Positions 11,432 to 46,731 of a stretch of DNA of 64,000 bases are shown piece by piece (the first letter of the stretch is position 1; each line of letters opens with the position of its first letter). The position numbers and the translations under genes were made by a program. The notes below the pieces were generated by a model. It did no database searches, was not told the origin of the DNA, and saw only the letters and a program-made list of their open reading frames with translations. The stretch covers positions 11,319 to 75,318 of IMG/VR virus record IMGVR_UViG_3300041585_000108. One strand, written 5' to 3'. This DNA is from a virus.

Positions 11432-11671
11432 TTAATTTATATTATTTTTATTAAATTCTTCAACAATTTGTTGAACATATTCAGAAAAATGTTTTCTAAT
11501 TGAGCCTGCTGGTCTGCTACCAATACTATCATATATTTTTTTGTACTCTAGCACATTTTCATATGTTGTTGGACACAAAATTATTTTATTATAAGATTTA
11601 AGATTTATTGGTAATGGCACATGTTTTGTACAACACTTACACTGTTTTGCTTTTTCTTGATACTTGCTCAT
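11432..11671 (-). CDS. hypothetical Cys-containing protein
   Basis: CKCC...CPT; ATGA overlap with terminase stop. Confidence 0.7.
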   Translation of the reverse strand: MSKYQEKAKQCKCCTKHVPLPINLKSYNKIILCPTTYENVLEYKKIYDSIGSRPAGSIRKHFSEYVQQIVEEFNKNNIN

Positions 11672-28467: not shown

Positions 28468-31272
28468 TTATGATTCAAGTACGTCAAGCCTGGCAGAAAT
28501 AGATGTTAGGGCAGAGCTAATCTCTTGTATTGCTGAAACAATATATGGAATTAGATTTGTTGTCATGACTGATTGATAATCTGGATCTCCATTTTCATCT
28601 ACCCCATCCTTTGCTCCCTGCACAAAATCTGGAAACGGTTCGGCAAACTCGTGTGCAATAAAACCTATCTGAGTGTTACGCTCAGAGTCTGATTTCATAA
28701 TAAAGGTTCTTACTTTAGCCATATTAATTTTTTCAAGCCCGCCAGAGTAATCTTGTATATTGTCTTTTAGTCTATAATCTGAAGGACCTCTAAAAGAAGG
28801 AGTCCCAGTACTTATATTTATGCCTCCAGCATCAGACATACTATTAAAACTTGATGAGTACATGAATCTAATAGCTTCTACTGTTCCGCTTGTTGCATAT
28901 CTTCCAAACCAACCTGCAGGCCCATCAGTTCTTTTTGTAACCATAGATCCATTAGGGTTTAATGACACACTAGTATTTGTATCAGACGGCGTGGAAGTAG
29001 CAAATCCAGTAGATATAGAATAAAGAAAGTTAATTATTGGTCTATTTGAATAAATCTTCCCACTTTGGCTATAACCGCCAAAATAAAGATCAGCGCCATT
29101 TTGTGCAGTTAATATAATGTCATTCTGTGCAAAGCCGCCAAAACCAGCATTTGTAAAAAGTCCTGAACCACTGTTAAACATTAATGCAGAGGAACCAATG
29201 TCTAAACGTTGTGTGCCAGAAGTAACAGCAATTGCCCCTCCTGATAAAAATCCAGATGAAGTATCTGTTAGTGTAAGCGTAGCATCACTACCTAGTACTG
29301 TAGTTTTTGTTCCAGAAATAAGTCTTACAACTCCACTAAATTCACCAGAGGCTCCAGTTATATCTCCTTTAAATGTTGCGCTTCCATTAAAAGCGTCTAT
29401 AGAAAATGTTGATTGATTTAAAGAATTGTATGCTGCTATTCCAGCACTATTCATAACAACTCTTGCTCCAGTCCCTGGAGCCGATGCATTAGCATTACCA
29501 TTAGAAAATACAGTAATTCCCGCTGAATTTATTGCAGTTATATTATTATTAGAGTCTGTTATTGTGCTAGTGCTTTTTGTTAGTTTTGTAGCTATAGCAT
29601 TGTTTGCTGCTGTCACATTTGTATTAGTTGTTGTTAAATTTGTATTAGTTGTTGTTAAATTTGTATTAGTTGTTGTTAGTTGATCAGTAGTTGCATATCC
29701 AGAAATTGTTGTTCCTGAGCCAAATACCGCACCATTCACAAAAAGCGTTCCATCGGATCTAACTCTAAATTTTGCATTTGCATCTGGAATATTGTTTCCT
29801 GCCCATGCAAGCCAAGTAGAAGAAGCAAATGAGTATCCATTATGTAAATAAAATGCTGTTGTTGCGTTTGCTCCTAATTGTATAAAGCCAGTGCTGTCTA
29901 AAATAACATTGTTTTTAGATAGCGTGGTGCCACTTAAATTCCATCCCGCAATAGCTCCAGCATTTGCAGTTATTGTTCCAGTTGCTGCTGAAAGTATTAC
30001 TGAGTTTGTTCCACTTGCAACCTTTAATCCAGTTGAGTTAAGTGCAAATCCGTTCCCAGTTAAATTTCCAGTAGCATTATCTATTGTTCCGTTATATATA
30101 GAAGCTCCTGTTGTAGACATAAAGATATTACCACTAAAAGTTCCGCCTTTAGCATTTACATCCCCATCTACAGTAAATTTAGTTCCGTCCCAAGAAATGT
30201 AATTGGACGTACTTCCTCCTACTTTAAGCAAGGCTGACTGATTAGAGTCTATGTACCAGTAATTGTTTGCATTGAAGGAGAGCCCTCTTTTGCCAGGCTC
30301 TACGCCATATCCAAACTTAAACATTCCTATGTCACCCGTTGAACTTGCACCAAAATATCCAGTAGTTGTTACGTTAGTTCCAATATAAGGAGTGCCTGAT
30401 GAAACAACATTTCCTCCAGAAATATATGAAGATGATATGTTATTGTACTCGTCATATGTAGCAACTGCTATTTTATATGTAGCCCCTGCTGCTAACCCTG
30501 CAATTTTATATGAAGTTCCAGTTCCTGGAGAATCAACATATGAATATACTGGGGATGCTCCAATATCACTAGTAAACCTAATTCTATATCCTCTAATCCC
30601 GCCGCCTGTAACTGGTGCCCAAGATACTAGGGCAAAAGAATTAAATCCTATGCTTCCAGATGCGTCTATTCCTCCACTAGTAGTAACTAAAGAAACGTTT
30701 TCAGGACCAACCGTATCTACTGTAATTGGATCGGTAGCTTGAAATGGACCAAACACAACACTTTTTTTATGATAGTCCTGATCTCTTGTGTCTACACGTA
30801 TCCACCTATTGTTTGTATTTGAAACTAATATTGTTGCTGAATTTCCAGTACCATTCCAAACAAGATATTCTTCTCCAGTAAATGTTCCAGTCAAACTTTC
30901 ATAAATTTGTGCATCAATAAACCATTTATTGTTGGCCAAGCTTTTATCTATTGCATCCCACTTAACGCCATACAGCAAAAGCCCTGGGGTAACAACTAAA
31001 TTTGTAACTGGCATAGTAAAATCTGGAACCTCTAAAGTAAATATAAAGTTTGCTGATCTTGGTCCATATATAACCTGAGATGGATTTTCTGTATCCTGAT
31101 AAGCATAAGCAAAAGAAAATGGGTACACTCCATTTGCTATTACATTTAATCCAGATCTTTCTACTATAAAAGAACCTGCTGTTTGTTTTGAAGCAGCAAT
31201 TGCAGGATTACTTTGTTGTTCTGCAGGGACATTGTTTTTTCCTCCGTCTAAAGCAGATATTTTAAAAACCAT
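28468..31272 (-). CDS. tail fibre / receptor-binding protein with FN3 domain and C-terminal peptidase S74 autocleaving chaperone
   Basis: FN3 W...GYRIRF...YKIAVAT, beta-rich Gly repeats, SDYRLK...GFIAHE, coiled-coil end. Confidence 0.82.
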   Translation of the reverse strand: MVFKISALDGGKNNVPAEQQSNPAIAASKQTAGSFIVERSGLNVIANGVYPFSFAYAYQDTENPSQVIYGPRSANFIFTLEVPDFTMPVTNLVVTPGLLLYGVKWDAIDKSLANNKWFIDAQIYESLTGTFTGEEYLVWNGTGNSATILVSNTNNRWIRVDTRDQDYHKKSVVFGPFQATDPITVDTVGPENVSLVTTSGGIDASGSIGFNSFALVSWAPVTGGGIRGYRIRFTSDIGASPVYSYVDSPGTGTSYKIAGLAAGATYKIAVATYDEYNNISSSYISGGNVVSSGTPYIGTNVTTTGYFGASSTGDIGMFKFGYGVEPGKRGLSFNANNYWYIDSNQSALLKVGGSTSNYISWDGTKFTVDGDVNAKGGTFSGNIFMSTTGASIYNGTIDNATGNLTGNGFALNSTGLKVASGTNSVILSAATGTITANAGAIAGWNLSGTTLSKNNVILDSTGFIQLGANATTAFYLHNGYSFASSTWLAWAGNNIPDANAKFRVRSDGTLFVNGAVFGSGTTISGYATTDQLTTTNTNLTTTNTNLTTTNTNVTAANNAIATKLTKSTSTITDSNNNITAINSAGITVFSNGNANASAPGTGARVVMNSAGIAAYNSLNQSTFSIDAFNGSATFKGDITGASGEFSGVVRLISGTKTTVLGSDATLTLTDTSSGFLSGGAIAVTSGTQRLDIGSSALMFNSGSGLFTNAGFGGFAQNDIILTAQNGADLYFGGYSQSGKIYSNRPIINFLYSISTGFATSTPSDTNTSVSLNPNGSMVTKRTDGPAGWFGRYATSGTVEAIRFMYSSSFNSMSDAGGINISTGTPSFRGPSDYRLKDNIQDYSGGLEKINMAKVRTFIMKSDSERNTQIGFIAHEFAEPFPDFVQGAKDGVDENGDPDYQSVMTTNLIPYIVSAIQEISSALTSISARLDVLES
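29617..29678 (-). repeat. three 21-bp tandem repeats encoding heptad LTTTNTN
   Basis: Plus strand ATTTGTATTAGTTGTTGTTAA x3 (last copy imperfect). Confidence 0.85.
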
Positions 31273-32156
31273 TATAAAAACCCTAAATTAATTTTATATT
31301 CTATGTCCATCTCAACACCTAGTGCTTTTACTATTGGAGTGGACAAAACTGATCTGCTTATTAATCCATATTGAGTATTGTACGAGTCTTCATCGTTTAG
31401 CCTTAATCCATCTAGCAATATAATGCAGGTACCAGTATTTTTTGCTTTGGCGCCAATTTCTATTCTTGTAATTAAAGAAAAATTAACTGAGCCAGAAAAA
31501 AATCCAGAGTTAAATAAATCAGACAAGGGTTTTTTAATAATTTTATTTCCTACTGTTGTATCGGAATTAAATCTTATTTCTTTGTAATTCGTGGGAGAAC
31601 TATAAAACCTAACATAAATATAGTCTAGGTTTAAATCTTGTTGCCTAAAAGCAATAGTTAATCCATCATTTACTCCATAACCAGAAATATCAAATATTGT
31701 ATCTAGGCTATATGATTTTGATGAATTAGACAAAGCGGATACGATAAAATAAGATGATCCAATCCTTGGAGCTGGAGATAAAGCCAAAACAGGTTGGTTT
31801 CCATTTTCATCATACCAAGAAGAAACATTTTCAAAGGACGATATATACTGAGATGAATAGTCTGTATTTTGAAGATTTGCTGTAGGGAATAGACCTATCT
31901 CTGAAATAATGCCTTCTACGTCTGGAGGCAGAGTAGTTTTATAAACTATTGAGTAGGTTGTTTCTCCAGTAGATGTATTTGTTTGTATGTCGGAGCTTCC
32001 TAAAAAAACACCTGATCTGTAAAACTCAAACTGCATGTCTTTGTCGTTGTCATTTTCAGCTTGAGGACCTATGCCTACTGCAATATCTTTTTGGTTAAAG
32101 TTTAATCCATTAGATAGGTAAGAAGTTATAAATCTTTTACCAAATTTTGTTATCAT
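31272..32156 (-). CDS. minor tail/baseplate protein
   Basis: MITKFGK...IAVG...ISEIGLF pattern typical of fibre-attachment proteins; position in tail module. Confidence 0.6.
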   Translation of the reverse strand: MITKFGKRFITSYLSNGLNFNQKDIAVGIGPQAENDNDKDMQFEFYRSGVFLGSSDIQTNTSTGETTYSIVYKTTLPPDVEGIISEIGLFPTANLQNTDYSSQYISSFENVSSWYDENGNQPVLALSPAPRIGSSYFIVSALSNSSKSYSLDTIFDISGYGVNDGLTIAFRQQDLNLDYIYVRFYSSPTNYKEIRFNSDTTVGNKIIKKPLSDLFNSGFFSGSVNFSLITRIEIGAKAKNTGTCIILLDGLRLNDEDSYNTQYGLISRSVLSTPIVKALGVEMDIEYKINLGFL

Positions 32157-32595: not shown

Positions 32596-35500
32596 TTAAA
32601 CATAAATCGACCTACAAACTATTTTTGTTGATGGCGATTGACTGTACCCTTGCTCAATATCCAAGACTATATATTTGCCAGATACCTGACCTACATCTTC
32701 TGTTGAATATACTAGGTTACTTGGGTAAGATATCTCTACAATATCTCCAGTTTCTATTAATGGGTTTGGGAATATATCTAGAGATAAAACAGTTTGTTGT
32801 TTAGACCATTGTGTTCTCATCCAATCTGAAAGAGCTTTAGCCTCTGATTCTTTTTGAATCCATGTAGATTCAAATGCTACCTGCTCCTCATTTTTTGTAG
32901 ACAAAAACTCTGGATCAATGTACTCAAATGGGTCTAAAGGAGCTATTGTTTCTCCTACAACTATAAAGCTTTTTTCTCCGCCGTCTGCTAAATCAACAAA
33001 TGTTCCTGTGTTATTTAAAATGTATGCATCAATTCCAAAGGATGTGGCATTGTATCCAAGCAGGGAAACATTTGGGTTTAATATAATTTGTGGGTATTTT
33101 ACAAATCCTGGGCGGGTGGCATATCTGGTAGATATTTTTTTAATCTCTCTAGCAACTGGGCCAAACTCTTGAACCCAAGGAGCTTTTGCAGTACTTGATG
33201 AAGTTCCGCTAGCTAAAAAATCTCCAAATATATTTTTTAAAGAAGTTGCTGCTCCTATATAAGACCCATAATTGTCGTAGCTGGAAGGCTTAAGAAAATC
33301 ATCTTTGCTTAAAACTGAAGTATATATATAATCAAATGCAGACTCACCTAAAATTCCTATCAGTCCTACCTTGTTTGTCATAGTTATTGATTCATTCCCC
33401 ACGGAAGTGTCTGTTGCAGTAATTGTACTGTTATTAAATTTAATCTTAAATATTCTTTTTCCAACACTTTGAGAAACCTTAACTTCTATTCTGTAAAGTT
33501 CTCCGCCAGATACTCCAGTAATTGAATTGTCTTCAGTTTTTTGAGTATCAGATATTGGTGTTTCAATTCCATTTTTTATTTTAACTAATTGTACGTCTCT
33601 AGAACTTAATCCTTTGTTTGCAACGTTTTGAGAAGTAGACATTTTTAATATATATCCATCTAAGTTGTTTGCAGACAATCCAATACCTAGTCCTGCAGAC
33701 ACACTTTGCTCTCCAGTAATTCTTCCATTAGAATCTGTGGCTAATTTAAAAAACATTGCTGTGCCAATAGAAAAATATTGTTCTGCTGCAAATGGTTCTG
33801 ATGTTGTAGTTGCGTAATAATAGTAATCGCTTTTAGGTGGAACGACTATCTTTAACAAAGATCTGGATATTTTTTTTGCAGATCCGTCTGTTTCCTGTAA
33901 AGAAAAAATTGATTGTTCTAGCGTATTAGTTTTTGTTACTGACTTTGCCGTTGGAATATTTACTTTGGATCCAGACCATAAACTTTTAATGCTATCTAGG
34001 TTTACTTCGTGAGAATCTCCTACCCCTATTCCTTTGCCAGTTGCATCAAATGCATTTCTTTCTTTAATTCTATATTTTAACGTTGGCTTGAATGAACCAA
34101 TTACGCTTTCTCCTAAAAATTTTGCAATGTCGGAGTCAGACGTGATCCACTTATTTACAATTGTATTTGGAGCGCTGATGGGCTTATATTGAAATTGAAT
34201 TGCGTCATACTCAATAATCTCTTTGTTTATTAAAAAGTAACCGCTCTTATTGTAAAAAGAAGTGTCTGTTAGTCCGCTGTATACTGTTATTGGCGACAAA
34301 GATATTGTTCCTAGTTTAGCTGCTGGATCATTTACTAAATCAACTGGTGCAGATGCATTTAAAGTTTCTTGTAGTGCCGCTGCCCCTAACGCAGAAGGAG
34401 GGGAGACATATAGGTTATCTGAAGCTCCAGTATAGTTTGTACTAATAATTGGAGTGTATATAACCTTAGCAGCTTTAACAGAAGGAACAGTTTCTTTTGT
34501 CAAAGAAATAATGTTAGGAAGATTAGAAGATTTTTTTTCGCTTCTAAGCTTAAAGCTAGAAGGTCTTTCTTTATCAAACAAATAATCTCTTGGATAAAAC
34601 TGAAGTTTATCGTAGTTATCAAATGTAGCAATCATTTGAGTATCTCTGCACAGATCTTGTATATGCTGCCAAACAGTTTTAGTATCATCTGTAAACCAAT
34701 AAAGGGGAACAATAGTTGCAGAGTCCACAACAGATAAATTATTTTTGCCATAAGTATTAAAGTTATAGCTTGTAAATCCAACTCCATCTAGAAGTCTTCT
34801 AATAATAGCCTGAGAAGGAGCATTTTGAATTACTATGTCTGGGGCTATTATTTCTTGTAAAAATTTTGCTCCGTCTAAGCCCTGGATATCAATATCTCCA
34901 AACTCAGATATAGTAAATGAGTCTATGTAAAATACTCCTTGAGGTATTGTGTCTGAGCCTATTATATTAAATGGCATTACCTTTACATTCTTATAAAGAT
35001 TTATATTTGATTTATCAAATGCTTTTGTCTTGTCGTATTCTATTCCTTTTCTGTCAAATCCTTCCAGATTTAAAGTAAGTGCATTTGATGTAACTATTCC
35101 AACTGGGACTATACCAGCAGAATCATCAGAAGACATCTTTGATATTTGAAAAGCAACTATTCTATCTGAAACGTCTTGAATATATCTTGCGCTTACCTCT
35201 ATTACTCCTAAAAATGAGTTTGCAGTATTTATTGACGTAACTGTAATAATTATTTTTTTAATGTTAAATGGAATAGCTGGAGATAAAAATTTTGTGGTGC
35301 TCCAGGTAGACCCATTGTAATAAAGATTAAATACCCCATCATCTGGGACCACTCCATTTGTAGATATAGTTGTTTTTACTCCTGCATGATTTTCAACTTC
35401 AATGGTCCATGCTGTTGGCTTAGAGTAAGAAGTTTCAAATTTAACAACAATATTATTTGTAACCGCAGTTTTAGCAGCTGGATACTCAACAGTAAAATTG

Positions 35501-35892
35501 CAATTAGATAAAGATGTTCCTAGCGCTTGAGGGGAAAGCCAAAATTTGTATTGAAGCTTAGAGCTAGAAAAATAAATTCTTGTTTTTAAATCTCCAGAAA
35601 CGTTATACTTAGGAATTGCTTGAGTTACACTTGGATTATTTATAAAGTAATTTATTCCAGCTACTGCTGGTCTTCTTGGATCTATTATATTAGTAAGAGG
35701 AAATAGTTTTTTAAAAGGATAATATACTTTTCCTGTTACAGGATCTGTTTTAGACGCAGTTTCTACTGGAGAAGTTATTTTTGCTCCATAAATTAGGTCA
35801 TTCATATTATATTCAAGCCAGCATCCGCCAGACATGGAATAGGATGTGGATTGGTTTATTTTATCTAAAGTTGTTGGGCTTACCGTTTGCAT
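32596..35892 (-). CDS. large minor tail protein (tail tip/hub)
   Basis: Second gene after the TMP; C-terminal NPLIETGDIV motif; start ATG 35892. Confidence 0.7.
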   Translation of the reverse strand: MQTVSPTTLDKINQSTSYSMSGGCWLEYNMNDLIYGAKITSPVETASKTDPVTGKVYYPFKKLFPLTNIIDPRRPAVAGINYFINNPSVTQAIPKYNVSGDLKTRIYFSSSKLQYKFWLSPQALGTSLSNCNFTVEYPAAKTAVTNNIVVKFETSYSKPTAWTIEVENHAGVKTTISTNGVVPDDGVFNLYYNGSTWSTTKFLSPAIPFNIKKIIITVTSINTANSFLGVIEVSARYIQDVSDRIVAFQISKMSSDDSAGIVPVGIVTSNALTLNLEGFDRKGIEYDKTKAFDKSNINLYKNVKVMPFNIIGSDTIPQGVFYIDSFTISEFGDIDIQGLDGAKFLQEIIAPDIVIQNAPSQAIIRRLLDGVGFTSYNFNTYGKNNLSVVDSATIVPLYWFTDDTKTVWQHIQDLCRDTQMIATFDNYDKLQFYPRDYLFDKERPSSFKLRSEKKSSNLPNIISLTKETVPSVKAAKVIYTPIISTNYTGASDNLYVSPPSALGAAALQETLNASAPVDLVNDPAAKLGTISLSPITVYSGLTDTSFYNKSGYFLINKEIIEYDAIQFQYKPISAPNTIVNKWITSDSDIAKFLGESVIGSFKPTLKYRIKERNAFDATGKGIGVGDSHEVNLDSIKSLWSGSKVNIPTAKSVTKTNTLEQSIFSLQETDGSAKKISRSLLKIVVPPKSDYYYYATTTSEPFAAEQYFSIGTAMFFKLATDSNGRITGEQSVSAGLGIGLSANNLDGYILKMSTSQNVANKGLSSRDVQLVKIKNGIETPISDTQKTEDNSITGVSGGELYRIEVKVSQSVGKRIFKIKFNNSTITATDTSVGNESITMTNKVGLIGILGESAFDYIYTSVLSKDDFLKPSSYDNYGSYIGAATSLKNIFGDFLASGTSSSTAKAPWVQEFGPVAREIKKISTRYATRPGFVKYPQIILNPNVSLLGYNATSFGIDAYILNNTGTFVDLADGGEKSFIVVGETIAPLDPFEYIDPEFLSTKNEEQVAFESTWIQKESEAKALSDWMRTQWSKQQTVLSLDIFPNPLIETGDIVEISYPSNLVYSTEDVGQVSGKYIVLDIEQGYSQSPSTKIVCRSIYV

Positions 35893-36341
35893 TAAATTTC
35901 TTCCAATGAAATTGATACGTCCCAAAAAGCTTGTGCTGTATCCGCTATTTTTTCTTTAACATTTCTTTTAATTAAATTAAATGAGCATGAGGTAAATGAA
36001 GCTACAAAATCTTCAGTCCTAGTAGAGTTATATGCAATTCTGGCATTAAATGACCCTTGGCCTTTAGCTCCTAAATAAAACGACTTTATGTCTTCTGCCC
36101 CCCAGCCGCCGTCTACGGTCATTGTATAGTATGAAGGAAGCATGCTCCATGAGGTAGATAAAGTCTTCTTGTCGGCTATAAACAGCTTTCTAAGGCTCCC
36201 ATTGGCCATTCTAGAAGTCTGCTCAAACCTTTGGGTATCTATTGATATTGGGGATCTATTATGCTCAGTTAATTTTTGCCAGGTTCCAACGGCATCTTGT
36301 AAAAACAATGCGGAACCTACTGGTAAAACTAAAGCTGCCAT
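35892..36341 (-). CDS. distal tail protein-like
   Basis: Immediately after the TMP; SRMANGSLRK...W...VSISLEEI. Confidence 0.6.
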   Translation of the reverse strand: MAALVLPVGSALFLQDAVGTWQKLTEHNRSPISIDTQRFEQTSRMANGSLRKLFIADKKTLSTSWSMLPSYYTMTVDGGWGAEDIKSFYLGAKGQGSFNARIAYNSTRTEDFVASFTSCSFNLIKRNVKEKIADTAQAFWDVSISLEEI

Positions 36342-39300
36342 TATATATTTTTCCCCTGTCCAACCATTTTAACATTAACCTTAGCTTTTTGTCCAATAAC
36401 AACCTGTGCTTTTTGAATAATCATATTCGATAGTGCTTCAACATCCATCCCATCAGATGCATAAATATTTTGGTTTACAACATATGACGCCCCTGATGTT
36501 GATTGGCCACTTACATTAAATGATGATTGAGGAATCTTATATCGTGGAGAGGCGGCTGCCAACTTATTCATTATGTCATTTGGCATTATATTTGCAGGAG
36601 ATCCAAGGTGAACCATCTCTGGACCCTTTTCTCCAACCAAGAACATTCCTTTTCCGCCCATGACTCCTGTTGCTGCTTTGCCCATATAAACAACTTGCCC
36701 ACCACCAGCGCCACCAACTTTATACTTTTGGCCATTTATTTCAAATGTGTCTCCCAAATTTAATTTTTCTCTTTTAACGATTGCATTTCTAGCTTCAGCA
36801 TTAAGAACATCAACTTTTTTACCATCAAATGTTTTTGACTCCATGCTTTTAGAATAATCTCCAGTAACCTTTACATTCTTTTTTGCTTGTGGATCAATCC
36901 CTTTTACAGCGTTAACAACATCTGCCAAAGTCTTGCCACCCTTGATGCTATCAGCTAATGCCTGATTAACTCCAGAAGAAGCTCCAGATTTTGCAAGTAT
37001 TCCTAGTGCGTTTTGTTCAGGAGATACTGCAACCTTTCTAGTCATAAGCTCTGAGCCCACATATCCTGTTTGAGTTGCATATTTTGAAGACTTAACTCCA
37101 GTTGTTGTTTCTGTTGCTCCTACAAGCCCCGCAGCTTCTCTGCCGCCCTCAACTGTTGCAACATACTGCTCAATTGTTTTCCCTGCAGCAGCTGCATTAC
37201 CATACAAAGCAGTCATAGCATCATTTACTTTATTTATTGCAGCTTCTTGTTTAGTGTATTTGTCTCTAATCTTATCTAAGCTTTCACCAGCTAGGGCTGC
37301 TGAATTTGCAAGCTTTTCTTGTTTATTTGCCATTGCTTCCAAAGCAGCTTGCAATGGTTTATTTGCAGCCTCAGTTGCTTTATCAATTGCTCGTACTTGA
37401 GATTCTGTTTGTTGTTGTGAAGTCAGTGACTCTAAATCAATTCTTAAAGATTGTGCTTTTGCAGTGTCTCCAGTTGAAAAAGCGTTTTCCATTTCAAGTC
37501 TTGTTTTTTCAATTTGTCTTCCAAGATCTGCATCTGATTGTGCAGCAGTTAAGGCTTTCTTTCGTGCATCCGCTAACTTATTATTAGCGTCAACCTGCTT
37601 ATTAAGAGATTTAATTCTATCTTTGTCAGATATTTGTTCTGCTACAGACTGTCCCTTTAGCGCCCTGGTATACGACTTAATTTTTTCTTCTAGTAGCCCT
37701 AAGCTTGTATACTGTTCTTTTAATATGCCAATTTTATTTGTAGATTCAACGACTGATCTAATTTTACTAAATGCTTGAGAAAGCACAGCAGTTTGTGCTG
37801 CATTTAATTCAGATAAGTCTCCTTTATATCCCTGTGCTTGAAGTCTAATCTTTTGATACACACTAACAACAGTATCCAGTCCGTTAATCATTTTTTTAAC
37901 TTCTGGATTTGTTTTAGCCATTTCATCAACTGTACCTTGAGTAATTATAGCTCCAGCTTCTTTAGACTTATTGATTTTATCAATCATTATTTTTTCAGCT
38001 TCTGCATAAGTCAATGATTTTGTTTTCCCAGTTAAATCTTTGGCTACAAGTCTTTCTCTTTTTTCAATCAAGTCGTTGATTCCAGTTTCTGTAGCCATAA
38101 GAGCAGTATTTAATGAAGCCGCTTTTTCTTTATTGCCTTGGGTTTTAGTATCTGTTCCAAAGCTTTCTACAGATGAAACAGCAGAAGTTTGAGCATCTAT
38201 TATTGATCTAAATTTTGAGTTACCCATTGTTGCTGTAATTGATTGATCTTTTTTGTTAGATAATTGAAGCATAGTAAATACTTTTTTAGTTGCTTCATCA
38301 GCAGACATTCCAGCAGCGATTAGCTGCTCTTTAATTCTACGAACAGCATCTGGAACTTTAGTAGAAGGCTGTCTATCTAATGCTTTAATTTGTTCAGCAA
38401 AAGTTTCTTTAACTTCAACTTTTAATTTTTTGTATTCTGCAATAGTCATTTGAAAAGGAGTTCCGCCATCCTTCATACTTTCATAAACAAGTTTATTTGC
38501 AGCGGCCATGTCTTTTGAATCTTGAATGGTCTCTTTAATTTTTGAACCAAAATCTGTAAATCTAAGATTAGCTTTTTTAGCAGCTTCAGCAGTTAATCCA
38601 AAGGTTGATAGGTTTAGTTCTTGTCCTTCTTTATAATGCTTAAATGCTTTATACCCTCCATACAATGCTGCAGCAACGGCAGCCAATGGAAGTATCACTC
38701 CTGCTGCAGCGGCAGCGGTAGCACCAAATCCAGCTGTAACTGCTCCAGAACCAGCACTAAGCAGAGCTCTGCTAGCGATCATTTTGCTAGCTGATTGAAT
38801 TAATTGAGGGCCCGCCATCATTCCAACCATGCTTCCCATCATTGCGCCACTTGAGCCTCCAATCTTTCCTCCAATAGCCGTTCCTGCTGCCATTCCACCG
38901 ATGGTGCCCAACATCATTCCGCCAGCTCCAGAACCACGGGAAATTGGATTTCCTTGATCGTCTAGAGGCCTAGGCTTATTTAAAACAGCTCTTCCGTATT
39001 GAATCGGATTTAGCATAGCTCTTGTTGTATACCCAAGGTTTGCTTTGAAGCCAAGTCTAGCTGCATTTGGAACTCTTGAGGCCTCAACTTTGTTACCACT
39101 TGCGTCAATGTACCCTGGATTGAAAGCAACTCCTGGTGGCCTAGATGCCATTGTTTGTGGACTGAAATATGATTTTCTAACTTGCTCCATCTTTGATAAT
39201 GTTCTACGTGAAGAGTCAGCTAGCTTAGATCCTAATAAACTTATGCCTGCAGACAAATCAGATCCATACATTCTAGCACCTACAATTAATTGATTTGCAG

Positions 39301-42300
39301 AATACTTTAAAGTAGTAGCACTAAATTTAATGTTTTTTCCTAATGTAATTGCATCTTTTTTAACACTAGTGCCTAATGCATATAATGACATCTCTATCTG
39401 TTTTGCGGCTGATTTAAGTGCCGCTTGTGTTTTATTTAAAGATTCATGCCCTAATGTAAGCCCTGGCATGTAAGGCAAAGATCCTTGAACCCCATAAGAA
39501 TTTGTTCTAACTCCACGATTTCCTACAAATGTTGTTCTTGACCCAGATAGCGGACCATCTTTATATTCTGGTTGTGCAACTGGGGCTGGAACATATGCTG
39601 CCGCTTTAGCACGTTTTTCTGCCTCCTGCATTGCTCTTTGTGCTGGATTTCCACTGCGACCATAAGCATACTTTCCAGCTTTAATTATTCCGCCAAGCTC
39701 ATAGTTTGGAGCTATAGTACCACTTTGCTGAGGACTAAATAGTTCTGGACCTTTTTCTCCAACTATATATTTTTGTCCTGCTAAGACTGGACCACCCATT
39801 TCTCTTTTACCAGCAATGCCAAATATTTCTTTCTGTAGTAATGCTGTTAATGGAGTATCTTTTTTAGAATCCCAATTTAAATATTTTTTTCTAAGAATGT
39901 CTTTATCTATTGGGGAAAGCTGTCTAATAAAATTACGATCTGAGATTAAATTTGATGCAGCAGATCTAACTACAGAATCCATTACGTGTGGCTCTAATGC
40001 ATTTTTAAGAGACCCGCTTGCATCCTTTAAATATCCATATGGCTTTTCTTTAGCTAATGCTGCCGCAAATTTATCATAGAATAAATTTTGTGTATTTTTA
40101 GTTAGGCCAGATGTACCAAATAGTTTGTTTCCCATTCCAATTGTAAGAGAATTTACGCCCCATGGGGCTGACTCATACATGCTTGGCTTAGGCGCACCTG
40201 TTGGTCCAAAGCCTGCACCAATTCTGCGCATAGCCATAGATTTCATGACATTGCCAATTACGCCTCCAGCATTAAATTCATTAGCGTTTGATTTAAATGC
40301 ATTATCGCTTAACGATCTTGCGTGTCCTCTTTGTCTTATTCTTAAATCAGTTTCTGTTTTTAATTTAAGTAGAGCAGCTGGAGTTAATTGCTTGGATGCA
40401 GAAGTTTTTACAGCAGAATGAATTCCGTGGAATTCCTCCCAATTTACTTTTCTTCCATCTTCAAGTCTTTTTGTCATGGCTTTATAAAAAATAGCTTCTT
40501 CTTTGTTTAAATCAAATGATTTAATTGTTGCTTTCAGTTTTGGAAGAACTCGATCAATTTCGGAAATCATTTTTTCGTGATATTGTTTTGCCGTCATTCC
40601 TTTTGGTATTTCTAAAGTTGATTCGGCAAAGAATCTTTTTGCACCGCCCTTAACTCCAAGAAGGTTTATCCTTGCTTGATCAGACATTGATGGCATATTT
40701 GGTTCATATGGTCTAAGTCCAGATGCCATTTTAAATACACCAGCATTTCCCATATCGTTTAATGTTCCGCCAGATAAATTATCTCTACTTAAATCTTTAT
40801 CGCCTCTTAAATTGGCTGCAACTAATTGCTTAAAGTAGTCTTTTTCTGTAAATTTTCCAGACTGTTTTACAAATGCTTTATCGTATGGGGACTCCAATAC
40901 CAATAGCTTTCTTTTGCCAGTCGGGTCTGTTGGGTCAATCATAGTCCTTATTGTTTGAACTGGTGTTTTAAGTCCATGGGCTTCTCTTGCAATAATAGTA
41001 GCTCTTTGTTCTGCTAGTGCCGCTCTTTCATCCATAACTGGTTTAACAAATACTACTGATCCATCTGGCTTTTCATAAACTCCGCCAATGCCTGAAACAG
41101 GAAAACTTCTTCCAGATGTAGGAGATCTTAAAGTTCCAAAATCTGTTGGCTTCATTTTGGCAAATCTTCCAGACATAAGAGAAGCATTGATGTCTTCCAT
41201 GTTTTTTCTTGCTTTTCTTTGAGTTTCAACTGCTTTGATCCCTCTAGGCATTCCAAGGAACATTCTTCCATAGTTATATTTACCAGGTTTTACTGCTCCT
41301 CCAATTTCTCCGCCAGAGTTCATGGCAAGTCTTCCGCGGACAAAGAAATTAGCGCGTGGAGTAGGTGCGACTGGCTTTGGTTTTATTGATCGGGTTTTAG
41401 AAGCTTCAAAGACCCTCATGTTTCCACCTAGAGCTTTTACCAAGGATTCTGGTATTGGGCCTTTTCCATTCCATTTGCCAGTAGAAATAAATTCTTCTAT
41501 TTTTGGTAAATTTTTCATAAAATCATTTACATTTTTAAAGCCTAAATATTGTGAAACTCGTTTTGCTCTTAAGATTGCTTCATCTTTTGTTAATGGCACA
41601 TAATCATCAATTCCAAGTCTAGCTGTAAGGGATGCGGAAAAATTATTAAATGGGTCATGCATAGCTGATCCAGCATAACCCCGTGTTGCTATTGGCCCAA
41701 TTGATCTTTCTATATGAGCTCTATCTGCATTTGGATAAAGAGTAGAACGTGGAAATTTTCTTTTTAATATATTTACTATAATAAGTTTTGCTTCTCTGTT
41801 TTTTACATCAGATTGAGATATAGCTCTACGTCTTGCTGCCCATTCTTTATCATTCATCCCAGCGGGTCTTGTTTCAACAAGATCTGGAAAATTTTCTTTC
41901 ATTAATTTTTGTTGAGAGTCTGTATAAGAAAGCCCTACACCATCTCTTAAAAATGATTCATGACTAGCTAAAGAAGATTCTACAAGAAGTGTGGCTTTTT
42001 TAACTGCAATGTCTGGCGTCATTCTAGGATCTTTTGAATTTCTTAATATTGCAGTTGCATCATTTAATATTAAGTTTGGCTTAACGTCCGCCTGATAAGA
42101 TGAAGATGTTAAATAATCTAGATATTCTTTTGTGCGTGTTAGTGCAGACATGCCTACATATTGTGAGCTTGAGTTGCTAAATATTTCTGGTGGTTGTAGG
42201 CCGTATCTATTTTTATTAGACATAACCATTCCGCCAACAGCTTCTCCAGTACTAATTAAAGAGATTGGACGCTTTGTTTTATTTGCTACATCATAAGATT

Positions 42301-45262
42301 GTTTATTTTGCTGATATATCTCTGGGCTAACAACTGTTTCTCCTGGAGTTAATATTGCATCAATCATTCCGCCTGAATTATATCCTTGTCTTGCGGTTGA
42401 TACTAATTTTGGATTATTTTTAGAAGCTTCTTGATTTAATACAAATCCACCAAGGGGGACTTTTGCCATAGTATTATCATAGTTAATGCTTGTATCTCCT
42501 GGTACCACCGCTCCATCTTTTCCTGGATGGTAAACGTATCCTCCGCTATTTAATCCTCTTGGCTTTGTTGTTTGAATGCTGTATCCAGCGCCTGAAGTTC
42601 TAACCCCTAAACCTCTTGCTATTTGATCAACAAGTTTTGAAGTTTCTGTTTTGTGAAATAATTCCTTCATGTTTGATTTTCCAAGAGCGCTTACTACTGG
42701 CTGATTTGTAAGGGGAACCATTCCTAAATTTAATGTTCTTACTTGAGCCGTAGCAATACCCTGAGCTGTTTGAGCCATCATCGCTTCTACTCTTGCATTT
42801 AATGCAAATATTTTAGTTCTTGCTGCTTCAACAGTTAGCTTGCCAGCTTGAAGTTGATCTACTATCATTTCTGTTTCTTTGGCTGCTAAAGAAGTTATCT
42901 TTGTCATTTGTGGAAGAAGAGCTTGATAAGAATCAGTAATTGAAGCAGTCATTGTTCCAGTTGCAGCAATTTCTGTTTTAAGAAGAGCAATCTCTGCTTT
43001 TGACTGCATTGCAATAGCTGCAGTCATTGAGTGCCATTTGGCAGCTTCTGCTGAAACTACTCCAGTTGAAATTCCATTTATAGATGTTACTCCAGGAATC
43101 TTAGGCATATCTGTATTCATGTACACTTGTGGCGCATTTGAAATTCTTTGATTTACAGGCTTTGGTCCAGGAACGGTTGAGAATATTGTTTCGTTAGCTC
43201 TTTGCTCTGCGGTTTTTGATCCAGTTGGAATCATATGGGACATGTCTCTTGAATATGGCTTGCCAGCCAACGGATTATTTTTATCTACAATTCTTCCGCC
43301 AACACCCATTACTGGATTTCCTGCAACGGTGGACATACTATTTGAAGTTGCAATTGTAGATGACATTGCTGATTGTTTTAGCTTTTCAAATGAGGCTGCT
43401 AAGGTCATTACCGCATCAGAAAATGTTGCCGCAGCTTTTGTGTCGCTGTAGAATGATTCTTCTACTGTTTTAGCTGCTGCTGAAGCAGCCACTAACTCTG
43501 GAGTTAATAATTTAAATCCTGTTCCGCCCTTTCCAATATTCTTTAAAGCAAATATACCTTTGATTATGTAACCAAAAAAGTTTGCAAGCACACCCGTAAG
43601 CATGATTATAGGACCAGCGATTGCTACTAGCCCACCAATAAATCCAAGCACTGCTTTGATTGGGCCTGGAAGATTTCCAATAAACTTAAGGATTCCATCT
43701 ATTGCATTTAATACAAATGCTCCAACCTTTAAGAACTGCTCTCCAACGGTTGCAAGCTCTGCTTTGACTGACTCTAGTGCTCTTCTATATTTACCAGATG
43801 CCGATTCAGTAAGGGTCTTTAATTCTCGTTCAGAAATACTCGCAAGGTCTTGTGTGCTTGCTTTCATTAAGTCTAATACTTGTAGCGTCTGGCTTCCTTG
43901 CTTGCCTAAGTTTTCAAACAAAGCATTAATTCTTGCAAACTGAAACTTACCAAAAAGTTGTTCAATTGCTCTTGCTCTTTGTAGTGGCTCTAAAGAATCC
44001 AATGAGTCTTTGAGCGCCATGATTGTGCCAGTTAAGTTTCCAGCATTTTTATCTACAATTCCTGATAGATCAATTCCAAGTCCGTTAAACATCTCTTTTG
44101 CCACTTTAGTTGGATTGATTATAGATGCAAGTGCTGACTTTAATGCGTTAGCTCCTTCAGACGCATTAATTCCGCCTTCTCTCATTGCGGTGAGGTATAA
44201 AGCTAAATCTTGAATATCTCCACCTAATGCTTTAACAACTGGTCCCGCTTTTGGAATTGCTGTTACTAAATCTTCAAGTGTGGTAGATGTCTGGTTTTCT
44301 ACAGCGTTAAGAAAGTCAATTGATTCTGCAAGCTGTGATGTACTTTGGCCAAAAGCAGTTTGAATTGCTAAAGTAGCTTTCATTGCATCTTGTCTATCAA
44401 CTTCACCAAGTACGGCAAGTCTAGTTGTCTGTCTAGTAGAATCTAGTAACTCGGCTCCTTGCTTACCAGTTGCAGCAATATCTGCAGCCAATGATATTGT
44501 TTCTGTAAAGTTTGCGCCTAGGCTTGAAGCAAGTTCTCTAGATAAAGCAGATACATCTCTTCTAACCTGAAGAAGATCTTCTGTTGAGGTTGCTGTTAAT
44601 CCACCATAAACTTTTGTAAGTCTTACAAGCGCTTCATCTGCTTGCTTGAATGCTTTTGCTGCAGCCATACCAAATGCTGCTAGGGGTACTGTAAGTCCTA
44701 CTGTTAACTGACGACCCGCCCACTGAGTATTTTTACCCCAGTTAATTAATTGTCCTGCGCCATTATTCATCACTTTGTTCATGATTGAAAGTTCTTGTCT
44801 TAATAAAGCTGTTTTATTTTTAGTAGCATCTAGTCCAGATTGAACCATTACGTTATACTGCATTAGACCTTGAGCATTTTTACCAAGTGGTTGAACAAAT
44901 GCGTTCTCAAGCATTACCTGCTGTTTAGCTAAATCTTTAACTAATGAGCTAGTCTTTTGTGTGTGGCCTTGCCATGTTTTAAAGTATTGGCCAAGCTTCA
45001 TTTTTCCGCTATCTAAGTTCTGGCCAAACTTAGATACATCTGATGTTAGTGTTACAAAGTGTCTAGAAAACTGGCCAGTGGAGCGCATGGTATCGTCAAA
45101 CTGACGATTCATGACTCCTACCTGGCTAGTTAAGTTTTTGTTTAAACCTATAGTAGTAGTCTGCAGTTTTAGCATTTGTGCCGTCACTGCTTGTAACTGC
45201 GCTGTTAGGCTAGAAAAATTAGCCGTCGCGGTTATGTTGGTGACTATATTTTGATCTGCCAA
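36341..45262 (-). CDS. tape measure protein (TP901-like core) with internal inserted domains
   Basis: 2973 aa, Ala/Gly-rich helical; follows tail chaperones; GLTVPLAAFG, REGG...GANALKS, IEQLFGK, two VGEKGPE motifs. Confidence 0.92.
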   Translation of the reverse strand: MADQNIVTNITATANFSSLTAQLQAVTAQMLKLQTTTIGLNKNLTSQVGVMNRQFDDTMRSTGQFSRHFVTLTSDVSKFGQNLDSGKMKLGQYFKTWQGHTQKTSSLVKDLAKQQVMLENAFVQPLGKNAQGLMQYNVMVQSGLDATKNKTALLRQELSIMNKVMNNGAGQLINWGKNTQWAGRQLTVGLTVPLAAFGMAAAKAFKQADEALVRLTKVYGGLTATSTEDLLQVRRDVSALSRELASSLGANFTETISLAADIAATGKQGAELLDSTRQTTRLAVLGEVDRQDAMKATLAIQTAFGQSTSQLAESIDFLNAVENQTSTTLEDLVTAIPKAGPVVKALGGDIQDLALYLTAMREGGINASEGANALKSALASIINPTKVAKEMFNGLGIDLSGIVDKNAGNLTGTIMALKDSLDSLEPLQRARAIEQLFGKFQFARINALFENLGKQGSQTLQVLDLMKASTQDLASISERELKTLTESASGKYRRALESVKAELATVGEQFLKVGAFVLNAIDGILKFIGNLPGPIKAVLGFIGGLVAIAGPIIMLTGVLANFFGYIIKGIFALKNIGKGGTGFKLLTPELVAASAAAKTVEESFYSDTKAAATFSDAVMTLAASFEKLKQSAMSSTIATSNSMSTVAGNPVMGVGGRIVDKNNPLAGKPYSRDMSHMIPTGSKTAEQRANETIFSTVPGPKPVNQRISNAPQVYMNTDMPKIPGVTSINGISTGVVSAEAAKWHSMTAAIAMQSKAEIALLKTEIAATGTMTASITDSYQALLPQMTKITSLAAKETEMIVDQLQAGKLTVEAARTKIFALNARVEAMMAQTAQGIATAQVRTLNLGMVPLTNQPVVSALGKSNMKELFHKTETSKLVDQIARGLGVRTSGAGYSIQTTKPRGLNSGGYVYHPGKDGAVVPGDTSINYDNTMAKVPLGGFVLNQEASKNNPKLVSTARQGYNSGGMIDAILTPGETVVSPEIYQQNKQSYDVANKTKRPISLISTGEAVGGMVMSNKNRYGLQPPEIFSNSSSQYVGMSALTRTKEYLDYLTSSSYQADVKPNLILNDATAILRNSKDPRMTPDIAVKKATLLVESSLASHESFLRDGVGLSYTDSQQKLMKENFPDLVETRPAGMNDKEWAARRRAISQSDVKNREAKLIIVNILKRKFPRSTLYPNADRAHIERSIGPIATRGYAGSAMHDPFNNFSASLTARLGIDDYVPLTKDEAILRAKRVSQYLGFKNVNDFMKNLPKIEEFISTGKWNGKGPIPESLVKALGGNMRVFEASKTRSIKPKPVAPTPRANFFVRGRLAMNSGGEIGGAVKPGKYNYGRMFLGMPRGIKAVETQRKARKNMEDINASLMSGRFAKMKPTDFGTLRSPTSGRSFPVSGIGGVYEKPDGSVVFVKPVMDERAALAEQRATIIAREAHGLKTPVQTIRTMIDPTDPTGKRKLLVLESPYDKAFVKQSGKFTEKDYFKQLVAANLRGDKDLSRDNLSGGTLNDMGNAGVFKMASGLRPYEPNMPSMSDQARINLLGVKGGAKRFFAESTLEIPKGMTAKQYHEKMISEIDRVLPKLKATIKSFDLNKEEAIFYKAMTKRLEDGRKVNWEEFHGIHSAVKTSASKQLTPAALLKLKTETDLRIRQRGHARSLSDNAFKSNANEFNAGGVIGNVMKSMAMRRIGAGFGPTGAPKPSMYESAPWGVNSLTIGMGNKLFGTSGLTKNTQNLFYDKFAAALAKEKPYGYLKDASGSLKNALEPHVMDSVVRSAASNLISDRNFIRQLSPIDKDILRKKYLNWDSKKDTPLTALLQKEIFGIAGKREMGGPVLAGQKYIVGEKGPELFSPQQSGTIAPNYELGGIIKAGKYAYGRSGNPAQRAMQEAEKRAKAAAYVPAPVAQPEYKDGPLSGSRTTFVGNRGVRTNSYGVQGSLPYMPGLTLGHESLNKTQAALKSAAKQIEMSLYALGTSVKKDAITLGKNIKFSATTLKYSANQLIVGARMYGSDLSAGISLLGSKLADSSRRTLSKMEQVRKSYFSPQTMASRPPGVAFNPGYIDASGNKVEASRVPNAARLGFKANLGYTTRAMLNPIQYGRAVLNKPRPLDDQGNPISRGSGAGGMMLGTIGGMAAGTAIGGKIGGSSGAMMGSMVGMMAGPQLIQSASKMIASRALLSAGSGAVTAGFGATAAAAAGVILPLAAVAAALYGGYKAFKHYKEGQELNLSTFGLTAEAAKKANLRFTDFGSKIKETIQDSKDMAAANKLVYESMKDGGTPFQMTIAEYKKLKVEVKETFAEQIKALDRQPSTKVPDAVRRIKEQLIAAGMSADEATKKVFTMLQLSNKKDQSITATMGNSKFRSIIDAQTSAVSSVESFGTDTKTQGNKEKAASLNTALMATETGINDLIEKRERLVAKDLTGKTKSLTYAEAEKIMIDKINKSKEAGAIITQGTVDEMAKTNPEVKKMINGLDTVVSVYQKIRLQAQGYKGDLSELNAAQTAVLSQAFSKIRSVVESTNKIGILKEQYTSLGLLEEKIKSYTRALKGQSVAEQISDKDRIKSLNKQVDANNKLADARKKALTAAQSDADLGRQIEKTRLEMENAFSTGDTAKAQSLRIDLESLTSQQQTESQVRAIDKATEAANKPLQAALEAMANKQEKLANSAALAGESLDKIRDKYTKQEAAINKVNDAMTALYGNAAAAGKTIEQYVATVEGGREAAGLVGATETTTGVKSSKYATQTGYVGSELMTRKVAVSPEQNALGILAKSGASSGVNQALADSIKGGKTLADVVNAVKGIDPQAKKNVKVTGDYSKSMESKTFDGKKVDVLNAEARNAIVKREKLNLGDTFEINGQKYKVGGAGGGQVVYMGKAATGVMGGKGMFLVGEKGPEMVHLGSPANIMPNDIMNKLAAASPRYKIPQSSFNVSGQSTSGASYVVNQNIYASDGMDVEALSNMIIQKAQVVIGQKAKVNVKMVGQGKNI

Positions 45263-46035: not shown

Positions 46036-46731
46036 TTATATTGGTAGAGCTAGAACGCGGTCTACGATGAAACCATATTCTTGATTAACGTTTGCGGTCG
46101 CACCGTCTGGAAGCAAACGAAATGTAACTGGGAATGTTGATGCTGCGTTACGAGCCAAAGAGAACTGTGACTGTTGTACAGAAAGAACACGGCGTGCATA
46201 ATATACGCGCTCAGTTGCTGTTACTTGAGATGTTGGAGCTTGACCAACTGCAATTAGCTGACGCTCTGTTGGAGCCTCACCTAGTGCACCTCCAGCAATA
46301 CCAAGCGTATCAATAGTTGATAAACCCGATCCCACATCGGGAATAAGAGTCCCTTGGCGCTGACCAAATACTAGAAGAACGTTCTCTAGAGTACCTTCTG
46401 CCATTTCTGTTGCGATCATAACTTCCATTGACTCCTTGAAAAGCTTTGCTGTATCAAGAAGCTGATCTACTGTAACTGAACCGTATGATGGGTTATATGT
46501 TACCTGAAGACCGTTATTTGTAAAACCAACGTTGCGATATCCAAATGTACCAGTTACCTGGTCGATATTATTAAGTGTCTTGGTAAAAGACTGACCAGCC
46601 ACAAAAGCATAAGCGCCTGTGCCTGGAGATTGGTTTTCTAAGTATCCTGCTGTAGTGACGTCAGTGTTCGAAAGGAACAGTGGTGACGCACCAACAAGAA
46701 TATTTTTAGCATTACCTGTATTTTGTGCCAT
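46036..46731 (-). CDS. major tail (tube) protein
   Basis: NILVGA, VGFTNNGLQVTY, VDQLLD, FPVTFRLLP; AGGAGG SD; own promoter and terminator. Confidence 0.82.
   Translation of the reverse strand: MAQNTGNAKNILVGASPLFLSNTDVTTAGYLENQSPGTGAYAFVAGQSFTKTLNNIDQVTGTFGYRNVGFTNNGLQVTYNPSYGSVTVDQLLDTAKLFKESMEVMIATEMAEGTLENVLLVFGQRQGTLIPDVGSGLSTIDTLGIAGGALGEAPTERQLIAVGQAPTSQVTATERVYYARRVLSVQQSQFSLARNAASTFPVTFRLLPDGATANVNQEYGFIVDRVLALPI

Follow-up and report, generated by a model that had tools for sequence, protein, structure and literature searches.

The tape measure protein (TMP) encoded by an uncultured phage appears to be built as a modular carrier whose inserts are delivered at infection, an explanation of the whole to which we assign a probability of roughly 0.6. 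The gene lies at 36341..45262 on the minus strand of a 64,000-nucleotide stretch of the IMG/VR virus record IMGVR_UViG_3300041585_000108 (positions 11,319 to 75,318 of the record; the whole stretch is called the window below) and is a single open reading frame (ORF) of 2973 codons plus a stop. In the proposed arrangement, a TP901-type core (residues 1-900) and a helix-rich C-terminal part with a glycine-zipper stretch would enclose a chain of inserts, which are an exchangeable, fast-evolving domain (cassette A), a putative kinase-fold enzyme (cassette B), a small conserved domain (cassette C), and a variable spacer (segment D), connected by flexible Gly-rich joints. A preliminary description, made from the letters and ORFs alone, had proposed a TMP with a middle region of separate modules between repeated Gly-Gly joints, and TMP family profiles, joint profiles, and alignment breakpoints among relatives agree on this layout. 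Enzymes inside TMPs are already known as single cases, being cell-wall hydrolases and one RNA polymerase; the novel points would be an apparently TMP-restricted kinase fold, the exchange of cassettes in slot A, and connectors made from a motif that is common in TMPs.

Architecture of the tape measure protein

The protein is assigned to the TP901-type phage tail TMPs by family profiles above their curated cut-offs. PF10145 matches residues 242-438 (E 8.5e-31; 107.8 bits against a cut-off of 33.2) and TIGR01760 matches residues 192-548 (108.6 bits against a cut-off of 28.8), and ten or more PHROG TMP families span residues 1 to about 862, with phrog_10030 as the best match (E 4.8e-119). All of these TMP profiles are confined to the first part of the protein. 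The features below run from the N-terminus to the C-terminus, with nucleotide positions in the window; the hydrophobic stretch in the core was read directly from the translation.

42563..45262, minus strand: N-terminal TMP core (residues 1-900), with PF10145 at 242-438 and a hydrophobic stretch at about 520-578
42413..42556, minus strand: joint L1 (residues 903-950, GLNSGG...PLGGFVLNQEAS), a degenerate copy of the 55-residue module, with GLNSGG at residues 903-908 (42539-42556)
42293..42385, minus strand: joint L2 (residues 960-990, GYNSGGMIDAILTPGETVV), a degenerate copy of the 55-residue module scoring 5.8 bits, with GYNSGG at residues 960-965 (42368-42385)
42197..42250, minus strand: joint L3 (residues 1005-1022, ..VGGMVMSNKNRYG), Y-type, left edge of slot A, with VGGMVMSNKNRYG at residues 1009-1021 (42200-42238)
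41327..42196, minus strand: cassette A (residues 1023-1312), a hypervariable domain predicted to be all-alpha
41261..41326, minus strand: joint L4 (residues 1313-1334, AMNSGGEIGGAVKPGKYNYGRM), Y-type, E 1.3e-10, with AMNSGGEIGGAVKPGKYNYG at residues 1313-1332 (41267-41326)
40280..41260, minus strand: cassette B (residues 1335-1661), a predicted atypical protein-kinase-like domain
40262..40279, minus strand: joint L5 (residues 1662-1667, EFNAGG), breakpoint 1660-1669
39806..40261, minus strand: cassette C (residues 1668-1819), a conserved small domain, missing from one group of relatives
39704..39805, minus strand: joint L6a (residues 1820-1853, REMGGPVLAGQKYIVGEKGPELFSPQQSGTIAPN), E-type, like the C-terminal region of ordinary TMPs, with REMGG at residues 1820-1824 and VGEKGPE at residues 1834-1840 (39743-39763)
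39656..39703, minus strand: joint L6b (residues 1854-1869, YELGGIIKAGKYAYGR), Y-type, E 2.8e-4, breakpoints 1860-1889, with YELGGIIKAGKYAYG at residues 1854-1868 (39659-39703)
38933..39655, minus strand: segment D (residues 1870-2110), variable, replaced or shortened in relatives
38648..38932, minus strand: Gly/Ala/Met-rich hydrophobic stretch (residues 2111-2205), G+P fraction 0.32, glycine-zipper-like
36668..38647, minus strand: C-terminal part rich in helix formers by composition only (residues 2206-2865)
36563..36667, minus strand: joint L7 (residues 2866-2900, GVMGGKGMFLVGEKGPEMVHLGSPANIMPN), second E-type unit
36344..36562, minus strand: C-terminal tail (residues 2901-2973), end highly conserved

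The preliminary description had placed a non-TMP-like middle between two helical TMP halves and had listed eight Gly-Gly motifs in it. The motifs were all recovered, each within about 20 nucleotides of where it had been put, and the non-TMP-like middle stands, as the TMP profiles stop at about residue 862 and the structure models of cassettes A and B are globular; the helical nature of the C-terminal half comes from a crude composition profile only. Structure prediction segment by segment, proposed as a check, gave an all-alpha globule for A and an alpha/beta kinase fold for B.

Recurrent joints

A second VGEKGPE, which was not among the eight motifs, is located near the C-terminus at residues 2876-2882. 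In shuffled sequences, the pattern GG..GE.GPE (2 observed) was reached in 0 of 2000 shuffles, [NM][SA]GG (4 observed, against a mean of 0.39) in 1 of 2000, and GG..K..YG (3 observed, against a mean of 0.11) in 0 of 2000. These are weak tests because the patterns were written after the motifs had been seen, and the weight is carried by the profile results; the two agree that the recurrence of the motifs is unlikely to have arisen by chance, the profiles being the stronger evidence.

Three kinds of joint were distinguished using a set of 251 related TMPs, gathered by similarity to residues 900-2110 or to cassette B. The Y-type is a unit of 22 amino acids (aa) with the core "GG..GK.NYG" (consensus LRNAGGMLGGMVKPGKRNYGKM), and its profile, built from relatives, matches 107 of the 251 TMPs in 1-3 copies. 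The copies occur at fixed places, which lie approximately 280-360 residues ahead of the kinase module, immediately ahead of it, and approximately 520 residues past its start. In the present protein the profile matches residues 1314-1334 (E 1.3e-10) and 1856-1869 (E 2.8e-4), and a diverged copy at 1009-1021 goes unmatched here, although its positional counterpart in relatives is matched. The E-type, "GG..VGEKGPE", has the unit form (K)REMGG-x-VGEKGPE-x-P and occurs twice, at residues 1820-1853 and 2866-2900. It aligns with the C-proximal part of shorter PHROG TMPs (residues 709-755 of 811 in phrog_1538 and 654-697 of 753 in phrog_5062).

The P-type is a 55-residue module, FASGG.VSVPGP.G.SD.VPAMLSPGEFVIPAKAV.KYG..L..IN.G.IPGF, found in 214 of the 251 related TMPs in 1-5 copies and in 1222 phage records, among them 564 of Mycobacterium, 209 of Gordonia, and 196 of Pseudomonas phages. 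It is usually present as a single copy near the C-terminus of ordinary TMPs, across about 20 PHROG TMP families, and no Pfam family matched it in scans of the whole protein and of the Tourach TMP. Only degenerate copies are present in the protein studied here, at residues 903-950 (no profile match) and 960-990. The idea that the joints are the canonical module was rejected, since the canonical profile reaches only 5.8 bits, at residues 964-984; the forms found here are diverged ones. The positional counterpart of L1 in the relative P0048 (residues 918-964) does match the module profile (E 0.002). Joints L3 and L4 are predicted to be disordered in a model of residues 1003-1335 (pLDDT about 30). 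Taken by their profiles, the joints are best described as diverged versions of motifs found near the C-terminus of ordinary TMPs. Lambda gpH is not among the PDB matches of the P-type or the E-type profile at E ≤ 10.

Module exchange among relatives

Searching with residues 900-2110 yielded 621 proteins at E ≤ 0.001, and the best 120 of them are 1973-4112 residues long, nearly all exceeding 2600. Internal ends of BLAST alignments to these best 120 cluster at residues 980-1040, 1310-1329, 1660-1669, 1810-1819, 1860-1889, 2090-2199, and 2840-2870, which are the joints and the glycine-rich hydrophobic stretch. Breakpoints at 1020-1040 (L3) and 1310-1329 (L4) form the edges of slot A. Proteins like P0028, for example, are 81% identical up to residue 1035 and 69% identical from 1315 on, with an unrelated segment of 250 residues in between. 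In P0048-like proteins, C is missing exactly and L5 runs into L6 ("GFNMGGMIQARAMGGPV"); P0022-like proteins have about 95 residues in place of D, and an insertion of about 770 residues is present at L7 in P0071-like proteins.

Identity to 13 collinear relatives follows the same divisions. It amounts to 0.73-0.95 in the N-terminal core, 0.27-0.62 in residues 1001-1320, 0.60-0.83 in B, 0.72-0.81 in C, 0.21-0.49 in residues 1881-2120, 0.47-0.95 (mostly above 0.8) in residues 2206-2865, and 0.84-0.95 in residues 2921-2973 at the C-terminal end.

When slot A is defined as the 270 residues preceding L4, its sequences in 142 TMPs form 14 BLAST groups with 50, 28, 23, 22, 5, 3, 3, and 2 members plus six singletons. 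In profile-profile comparison by hhalign, types A1, A2, and A3 are mutually unrelated (probability ≤ 1.3%); remote homology links A1 with A4 (96%), and a stretch of 52 residues is shared by A2 and A5 (90%). Mapped onto a FastTree phylogeny built from the N-terminal 880 residues, the 14 types require 25 changes where 13 would be the minimum, while shuffled types need 76 on average and none of 200 shuffles was as low as 25; the tree is a quick one of a single region, with 125 distinct rows among the 142 and the slot treated as a fixed window. The strongly supported branches alone force at least 8, at least 9, and at least 5 changes for A1, A2, and A3, respectively. Within a single tight clade of 53 rows these three types are intermixed, with P0003 (A1), for instance, standing beside P0036 (A2). 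Such a pattern is expected of repeated cassette exchange rather than of vertical divergence. A conserved scaffold with alternative unrelated domains in close relatives, one feature of polymorphic toxin systems, is thus present at slot A, internally and not at the C-terminus. No cognate immunity gene is evident, although no search was aimed at immunity genes.

The preliminary description had regarded the region as a polymorphic cassette array with linkers serving as recombination points, to be checked by aligning related TMPs for conserved flanks and linkers with swapped cargo. That check came out positive (breakpoints at joints, unrelated slot-A cassettes, 25 versus 13 changes). Polymorphism applies to A and D (0.21-0.62 identity) but not to B and C, which are conserved (0.60-0.83). 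For the linkers, breakpoints do coincide with joints, but the joints are not DNA repeats. Within-gene DNA repeats as recombination substrates are unsupported, as L3 and L4 of the same gene share only 40-43 of 66 nucleotides (sequences L002 and L014), and the joints therefore seem to be maintained by selection on the peptide rather than to be recent DNA repeats. Among 241 TMPs with the start of B, a recognized joint ends at most 40 residues before B in 134; 41 have a joint on both sides and 101 have none detected with the joint profiles used.

A kinase-like domain in cassette B

The AlphaFold model of cassette B (pLDDT 80.7, pTM 0.76) has an alpha/beta, bilobal kinase fold. Foldseek searches of the model against PDB returned Vps34, CtkA, LepB, and HipA, with Vps34 as the best match (E 9.3e-4); the first ten rows have probabilities of 0.92-0.98 and low TM-scores of 0.25-0.34. 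Six residues (K1407, E1418, D1488, D1490, N1495, and D1503) are invariant in 18 sequences with identities down to 51%. In the model, K1407 is located in strand 71-77 and E1418 in helix 80-96, D1488, D1490, and N1495 come after helix 141-154, and D1503 follows. In order and secondary-structure setting, these residues would fit the ATP-anchoring Lys, the Glu of helix C, the catalytic Asp..Asn loop, and the metal-binding Asp of kinases.

Sequence comparison places the domain in no kinase family. No Pfam kinase family matched at E ≤ 0.1 in the whole protein, including CotH (PF08757), HipA, and PI3/PI4-kinase, and PDB sequence searches with the whole protein and with the B profile gave nothing significant. 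The nearest named clusters in ESM-Atlas are LepB_N, HipA_2, and PI3_PI4_kinase (0.91-0.92), which are leads only. Because no sequence profile of a kinase family matches, the predicted kinase assignment is made at the level of fold and not of family membership.

In a profile search of 1.84 billion cluster representatives, B was found in 168 clusters. The lengths of the 150 clusters listed are ≥2000 aa in 114, 1000-1999 aa in 19, and <1000 aa in 17, and the 17 short proteins, which start within a joint or within the domain, are apparently fragments. Given this spread of lengths and the fragment-like nature of the short ones, B seems to be restricted to giant TMPs. At the level of structure, matches of the B model in BFVD are other large virion-type phage proteins (E 6e-6 to 7.7e-4), including a 1340-aa "ADP-ribosyltransferase" of Mycobacterium phage Onyinye (E 6.1e-6), proteins of uncultured phages with PI3K/PI4K domains, and a MuF "head morphogenesis" protein. 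This suggests that an atypical kinase fold is a recurrent passenger of virion proteins. More generally, BFVD holds B-like folds in proteins of 1100-1480 aa from Mycobacterium and Gordonia phages and haloarchaeal tailed viruses, annotated as ADP-ribosyltransferase, portal, or head-morphogenesis (MuF) proteins. In the full-text literature, subscription journals aside, we found no paper that describes a kinase inside a TMP.

Cassettes A and C, segment D, and the C-terminal part

Cassette A has six invariant residues (R1181, H1183, H1202, D1203, N1206, and D1220). The model of A with both joints (residues 1003-1335; pLDDT 69.3) is an all-alpha globule of 13 helices, in which the loop bearing the most conserved motif has a pLDDT of about 30. 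No known fold matched this model, ESM-Atlas gave no usable match, and a PDB sequence search with the A profile returned nothing significant; likewise, the slot-A cassettes that P0028, P0076, and P0098 carry instead are without Pfam matches. Cassette C (about 150 aa) has a mean column identity of 87%, and a PDB sequence search with its profile found no solved relative. Residues 2111-2205 are a candidate membrane-inserting part, and their counterpart in the relative P0204 matches the Pfam family Gly-zipper_Omp.

Other cargo in related tape measure proteins

A Pfam scan of 26 relatives found PF10145 in 24, the two without it (P0198 and P0210) being apparently N-terminally truncated. Several of these TMPs carry recognizable domains, including OmpA in P0093 (residues 2795-2888), peptidase M23 in P0258 (2198-2291), LysM in P0224, and CHAP plus LysM in P0122 (2674-2869), the last located between P-type modules at 2576-2626 and 2885-2933. 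P0198 (3950 aa) has a HAD acid phosphatase (1458-1591) and a kinase-fold module (368-677) in the same TMP. Outside this family, the TMP of phage Douge (8zdo chain S) contains the P-type module twice, at residues 964-1013 and 1412-1461. In Tourach gp16 (L039, 283-5394), about 400 residues with a marginal NlpC/P60 match (E 7.9e-5) separate the modules at 960-1009 and 1407-1457, from which it follows that the "module-insert-module" design is older and wider than the TMP family described here.

Proposed delivery at infection and alternative explanations

TMPs are expelled from the tail at the start of infection. Inserts of the TMP would travel with it to the host envelope or cytoplasm, as protein and before phage gene expression. 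Because it needs ATP, the putative kinase B would find its target, of host or phage origin, in the cytoplasm. The exchange of slot A may reflect an arms race with the host, since a domain that meets the host would come under diversifying exchange, and the GG..VGEKGPE joints may be maturation cleavage sites such as the one in T5 pb2. Delivery of effectors by a TMP is plausible by analogy with gp96 of Thermus phage P23-45. This TMP of 5002 aa has an active RNA polymerase fused to it, which virions contain and which is located on the phage DNA 5 min into infection, a case of a TMP-borne enzyme at work in the cytoplasm (PMC10770324).

Several points weigh against this explanation. The main physical problem is that three copies of 1200 aa of folded domains would not obviously fit the lumen of the tail tube. 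B and C are conserved and not polymorphic, so that the swappable cargo appears to be mainly slot A, D, and C-terminal insertions. The kinase has no sequence match in Pfam, NCBIfam, or solved structures, its Foldseek TM-scores are low, and its catalytic roles were assigned by order and position in the model, not by superposition. The set of 251 TMPs, by its construction, is no guide to the frequency of B in giant TMPs at large. Recombination within the N-terminal region used for the tree would also inflate the count of slot-A changes, and the match to the T5 cleavage site is not significant alone (E 1.9).

The alternative that survives best, tentative as it is, holds that the protein is a true polyprotein. 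The joints would then be maturation cleavage sites, the tail would hold free A, B, and C, and the breakpoints would follow from this rather than mark recombination signals. During tail morphogenesis in T5, a cut after R1127 divides pb2 into pb2* and pb2C; the C-terminal piece separated in this way is enzymatic, remains in the tail, and plugs the hub (Linares et al., 2023, PMC10038345). The E-type joint profile has five weak matches in PDB, four of which are TMPs at C-proximal places, including gp18 of 9occ (E 0.093), the DT57C TMP at residues 1135-1172 (E 0.3), and T5 pb2 at residues 1127-1163 (E 1.9). In this last alignment, weak as its E-value is, R1127 of pb2 falls on R1820 in "KR-EMGGPV". 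The predicted disorder of the joints and their conservation as protein, not DNA, also speak for cleavage, and so does the presence of a subtilase (PF00082, E 1.1e-13) and an HslV-family peptidase (phrog_1040), encoded at 2917-4062 and 4618-5172 (minus strand), beside a head maturation protease at 51120-52487. Should the joints of the TMP be cut, the subtilase and the HslV-family peptidase would be candidate proteases, which is pure speculation. However, the E-values of the matches are only 0.09-1.9, and only the E-type joints (L6a and L7) resemble the T5 site, with the Y-type joints around A and B having no mapped counterpart. Moreover, the P23-45 enzyme stays in full-length gp96 in virions. 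We thus suggest that the E-type joints (1820 and 2866) may be maturation cleavage sites, a lead that does not cover the Y-type joints.

It is unlikely that the inserts serve the virion itself, with the kinase at work inside the producing cell, where it might phosphorylate parts of the tail or the TMP at assembly as CotH does for the spore coat, and with A and D as length spacers. TMP residues generally count towards tail length, D looks like a low-complexity spacer that is merely shortened in relatives, and CotH, a kinase of structural assembly, can be counted as the best structural match of B. The lack of any identified immunity-like or target gene would also agree with an assembly role, immunity genes having had no dedicated search. 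Against these stand the distinct folded domains of slot A, which have their own invariant residues and are unlike a spacer, and their repeated swapping between near-identical backbones. Furthermore, the cell-wall enzymes in relatives would make sense only after ejection, and P23-45 provides a case of a TMP-borne enzyme that can act in the host.

We likewise doubt that the joints serve to dock the TMP to the tail tube, the hub, or an assembly chaperone, with the inserts as tolerated loops and with no recombination or cleavage role for the joints, for although the canonical module is widespread and usually single near the C-terminus (1222 phage records, about 20 PHROG TMP families) and the TMP C-termini of Douge and T5 plug the baseplate hub, the Douge hub orders only residues 1658-1699 and leaves the modules at 964-1013 and 1412-1461 unresolved, and at least five copies over 2000 residues cannot all fit the hub.

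A modular carrier with delivered inserts thus remains the explanation that we favor for the whole. In its most far-reaching form, the TMP would be a plug-in holder of injection cassettes, in which the kinase rewires or disarms the host before phage gene expression, the traded slot-A domain counters defences, and the joints are standard connectors, either cleavage sites or flexible joints, shared with mycobacteriophage and T5-type TMPs; this extended form is a tentative possibility. The building plan of connector motif, predicted kinase-fold enzyme, and refillable slot is family-wide (621 middle-region matches and 168 kinase clusters). If the modules are delivered, abundant freshwater phages would bring signalling enzymes into the cell at time zero, and the exchangeable slot would be worth searching for new anti-defence or take-over functions. 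The connector motif may also offer a way to find cargo boundaries in many unannotated giant TMPs.

Genomic setting

The gene is part of a tail module. Downstream are a minor tail protein gene at 32596-35925 (phrog_10359) and a tail protein gene at 31272-32156, and upstream are a gene for an Ig-domain protein at 46036-46731 and two small ORFs without assigned function at the chaperone position. The wider neighbourhood consists of phage genes for tail, head, and replication functions. The gene had no Megablast match among 50,697 phage records, and tblastn of the protein matched only residues 1-628, to TMPs of Streptomyces phages (31-35% identity) and Gordonia phages; in these searches the phage has no close cultured relative. 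A nearly identical gene is present on an IMG/VR contig of 62,836 bp (L001). The G+C content is 31-39%, and a WhiB-like regulator is encoded at 6274-6636 (minus strand). The regulator and the low G+C content together point to a host that is probably a low-GC (freshwater) actinobacterium, and the phage, uncultured and low in G+C itself, is probably an actinobacterial phage of siphovirus type.

Other features of the window include a Nol-like carbamoyltransferase at 9803-10996 (minus strand) and an unusual gene order, with the large terminase (11668-13473) about 40 kb from the portal and head genes (52541-54124) and the replication and tail modules in between. Four ORFs match families of 2OG-Fe(II) oxygenases (57489-58142, 58139-58888, 59705-60379, and 61091-61804, minus strand), interleaved with unannotated ORFs between tail-fibre-like genes. 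The first 2000 positions have a G+C content of up to 0.46, against about 0.33 elsewhere, and for an ORF at 614-1978 the one match, to a family of acidic repetitive proteins, stays below threshold. No terminal repeat was found in the window, which does not wrap onto itself.

Comparison with known systems

As in P23-45 gp96, a folded enzyme acting in the cytoplasm, here a putative one, is located in a giant TMP beside membrane and peptidase parts typical of TMPs. However, the gp96 enzyme is a tested RNA polymerase in the N-terminal part, whereas the TMP described here has a predicted kinase fold in the middle and several modules between repeated joints. With T5 pb2 it has hydrophobic stretches in common, and the post-cut AEGG..GEHGTE..P of pb2 aligns, weakly (E 1.9), with the GG..VGEKGPE joints; pb2 has one site near its C-terminus, in contrast to two E-type sites (1820 and 2866) here, which are putative only.

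The TMPs of mycobacteriophages resemble the present one in having enzymatic inserts inside the TMP (TM4, Douge gp16, and Tourach gp16), which in TM4 are embedded peptidoglycan-hydrolase motifs (PMC1796659). In Douge and Tourach, two 55-aa modules (approximately 960-1013 and 1407-1461) bracket an insert of 400 aa, which is the same module-insert-module design. These TMPs have one insert of the cell-wall-hydrolase type, whereas four are found here, none of them of the cell-wall type, and the joints are shorter and diverged. With regard to enzymes of similar predicted fold, CotH (5jda), CtkA, PI4KII, HipA, and LepB are all atypical kinase-like enzymes, and B has no sequence-level membership in any of them.

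MuF polymorphic toxins of temperate phages join a conserved virion scaffold to variable domains, for which injection together with the DNA has been proposed (PMC5576092), and MuF-type proteins are among the BFVD matches of the predicted kinase. Their scaffold is a head protein with a C-terminal variable domain and often an immunity gene, while here the slots are internal to a tail protein; the words "kinase" and "tape measure" are both absent from that paper. Finally, Sle1-type effectors of actinobacterial contractile injection systems (CISs) are TMP-related carriers with exchangeable C-terminal domains (PMC13277306). They share with the present TMP the helical, TMP-related carrier, the link to Actinobacteria, and unrelated exchangeable domains in a tail-like tube, but they are cargo of a cellular CIS with the variable domain at the C-terminus, whereas the protein described here is a true phage TMP in which the slots are internal.

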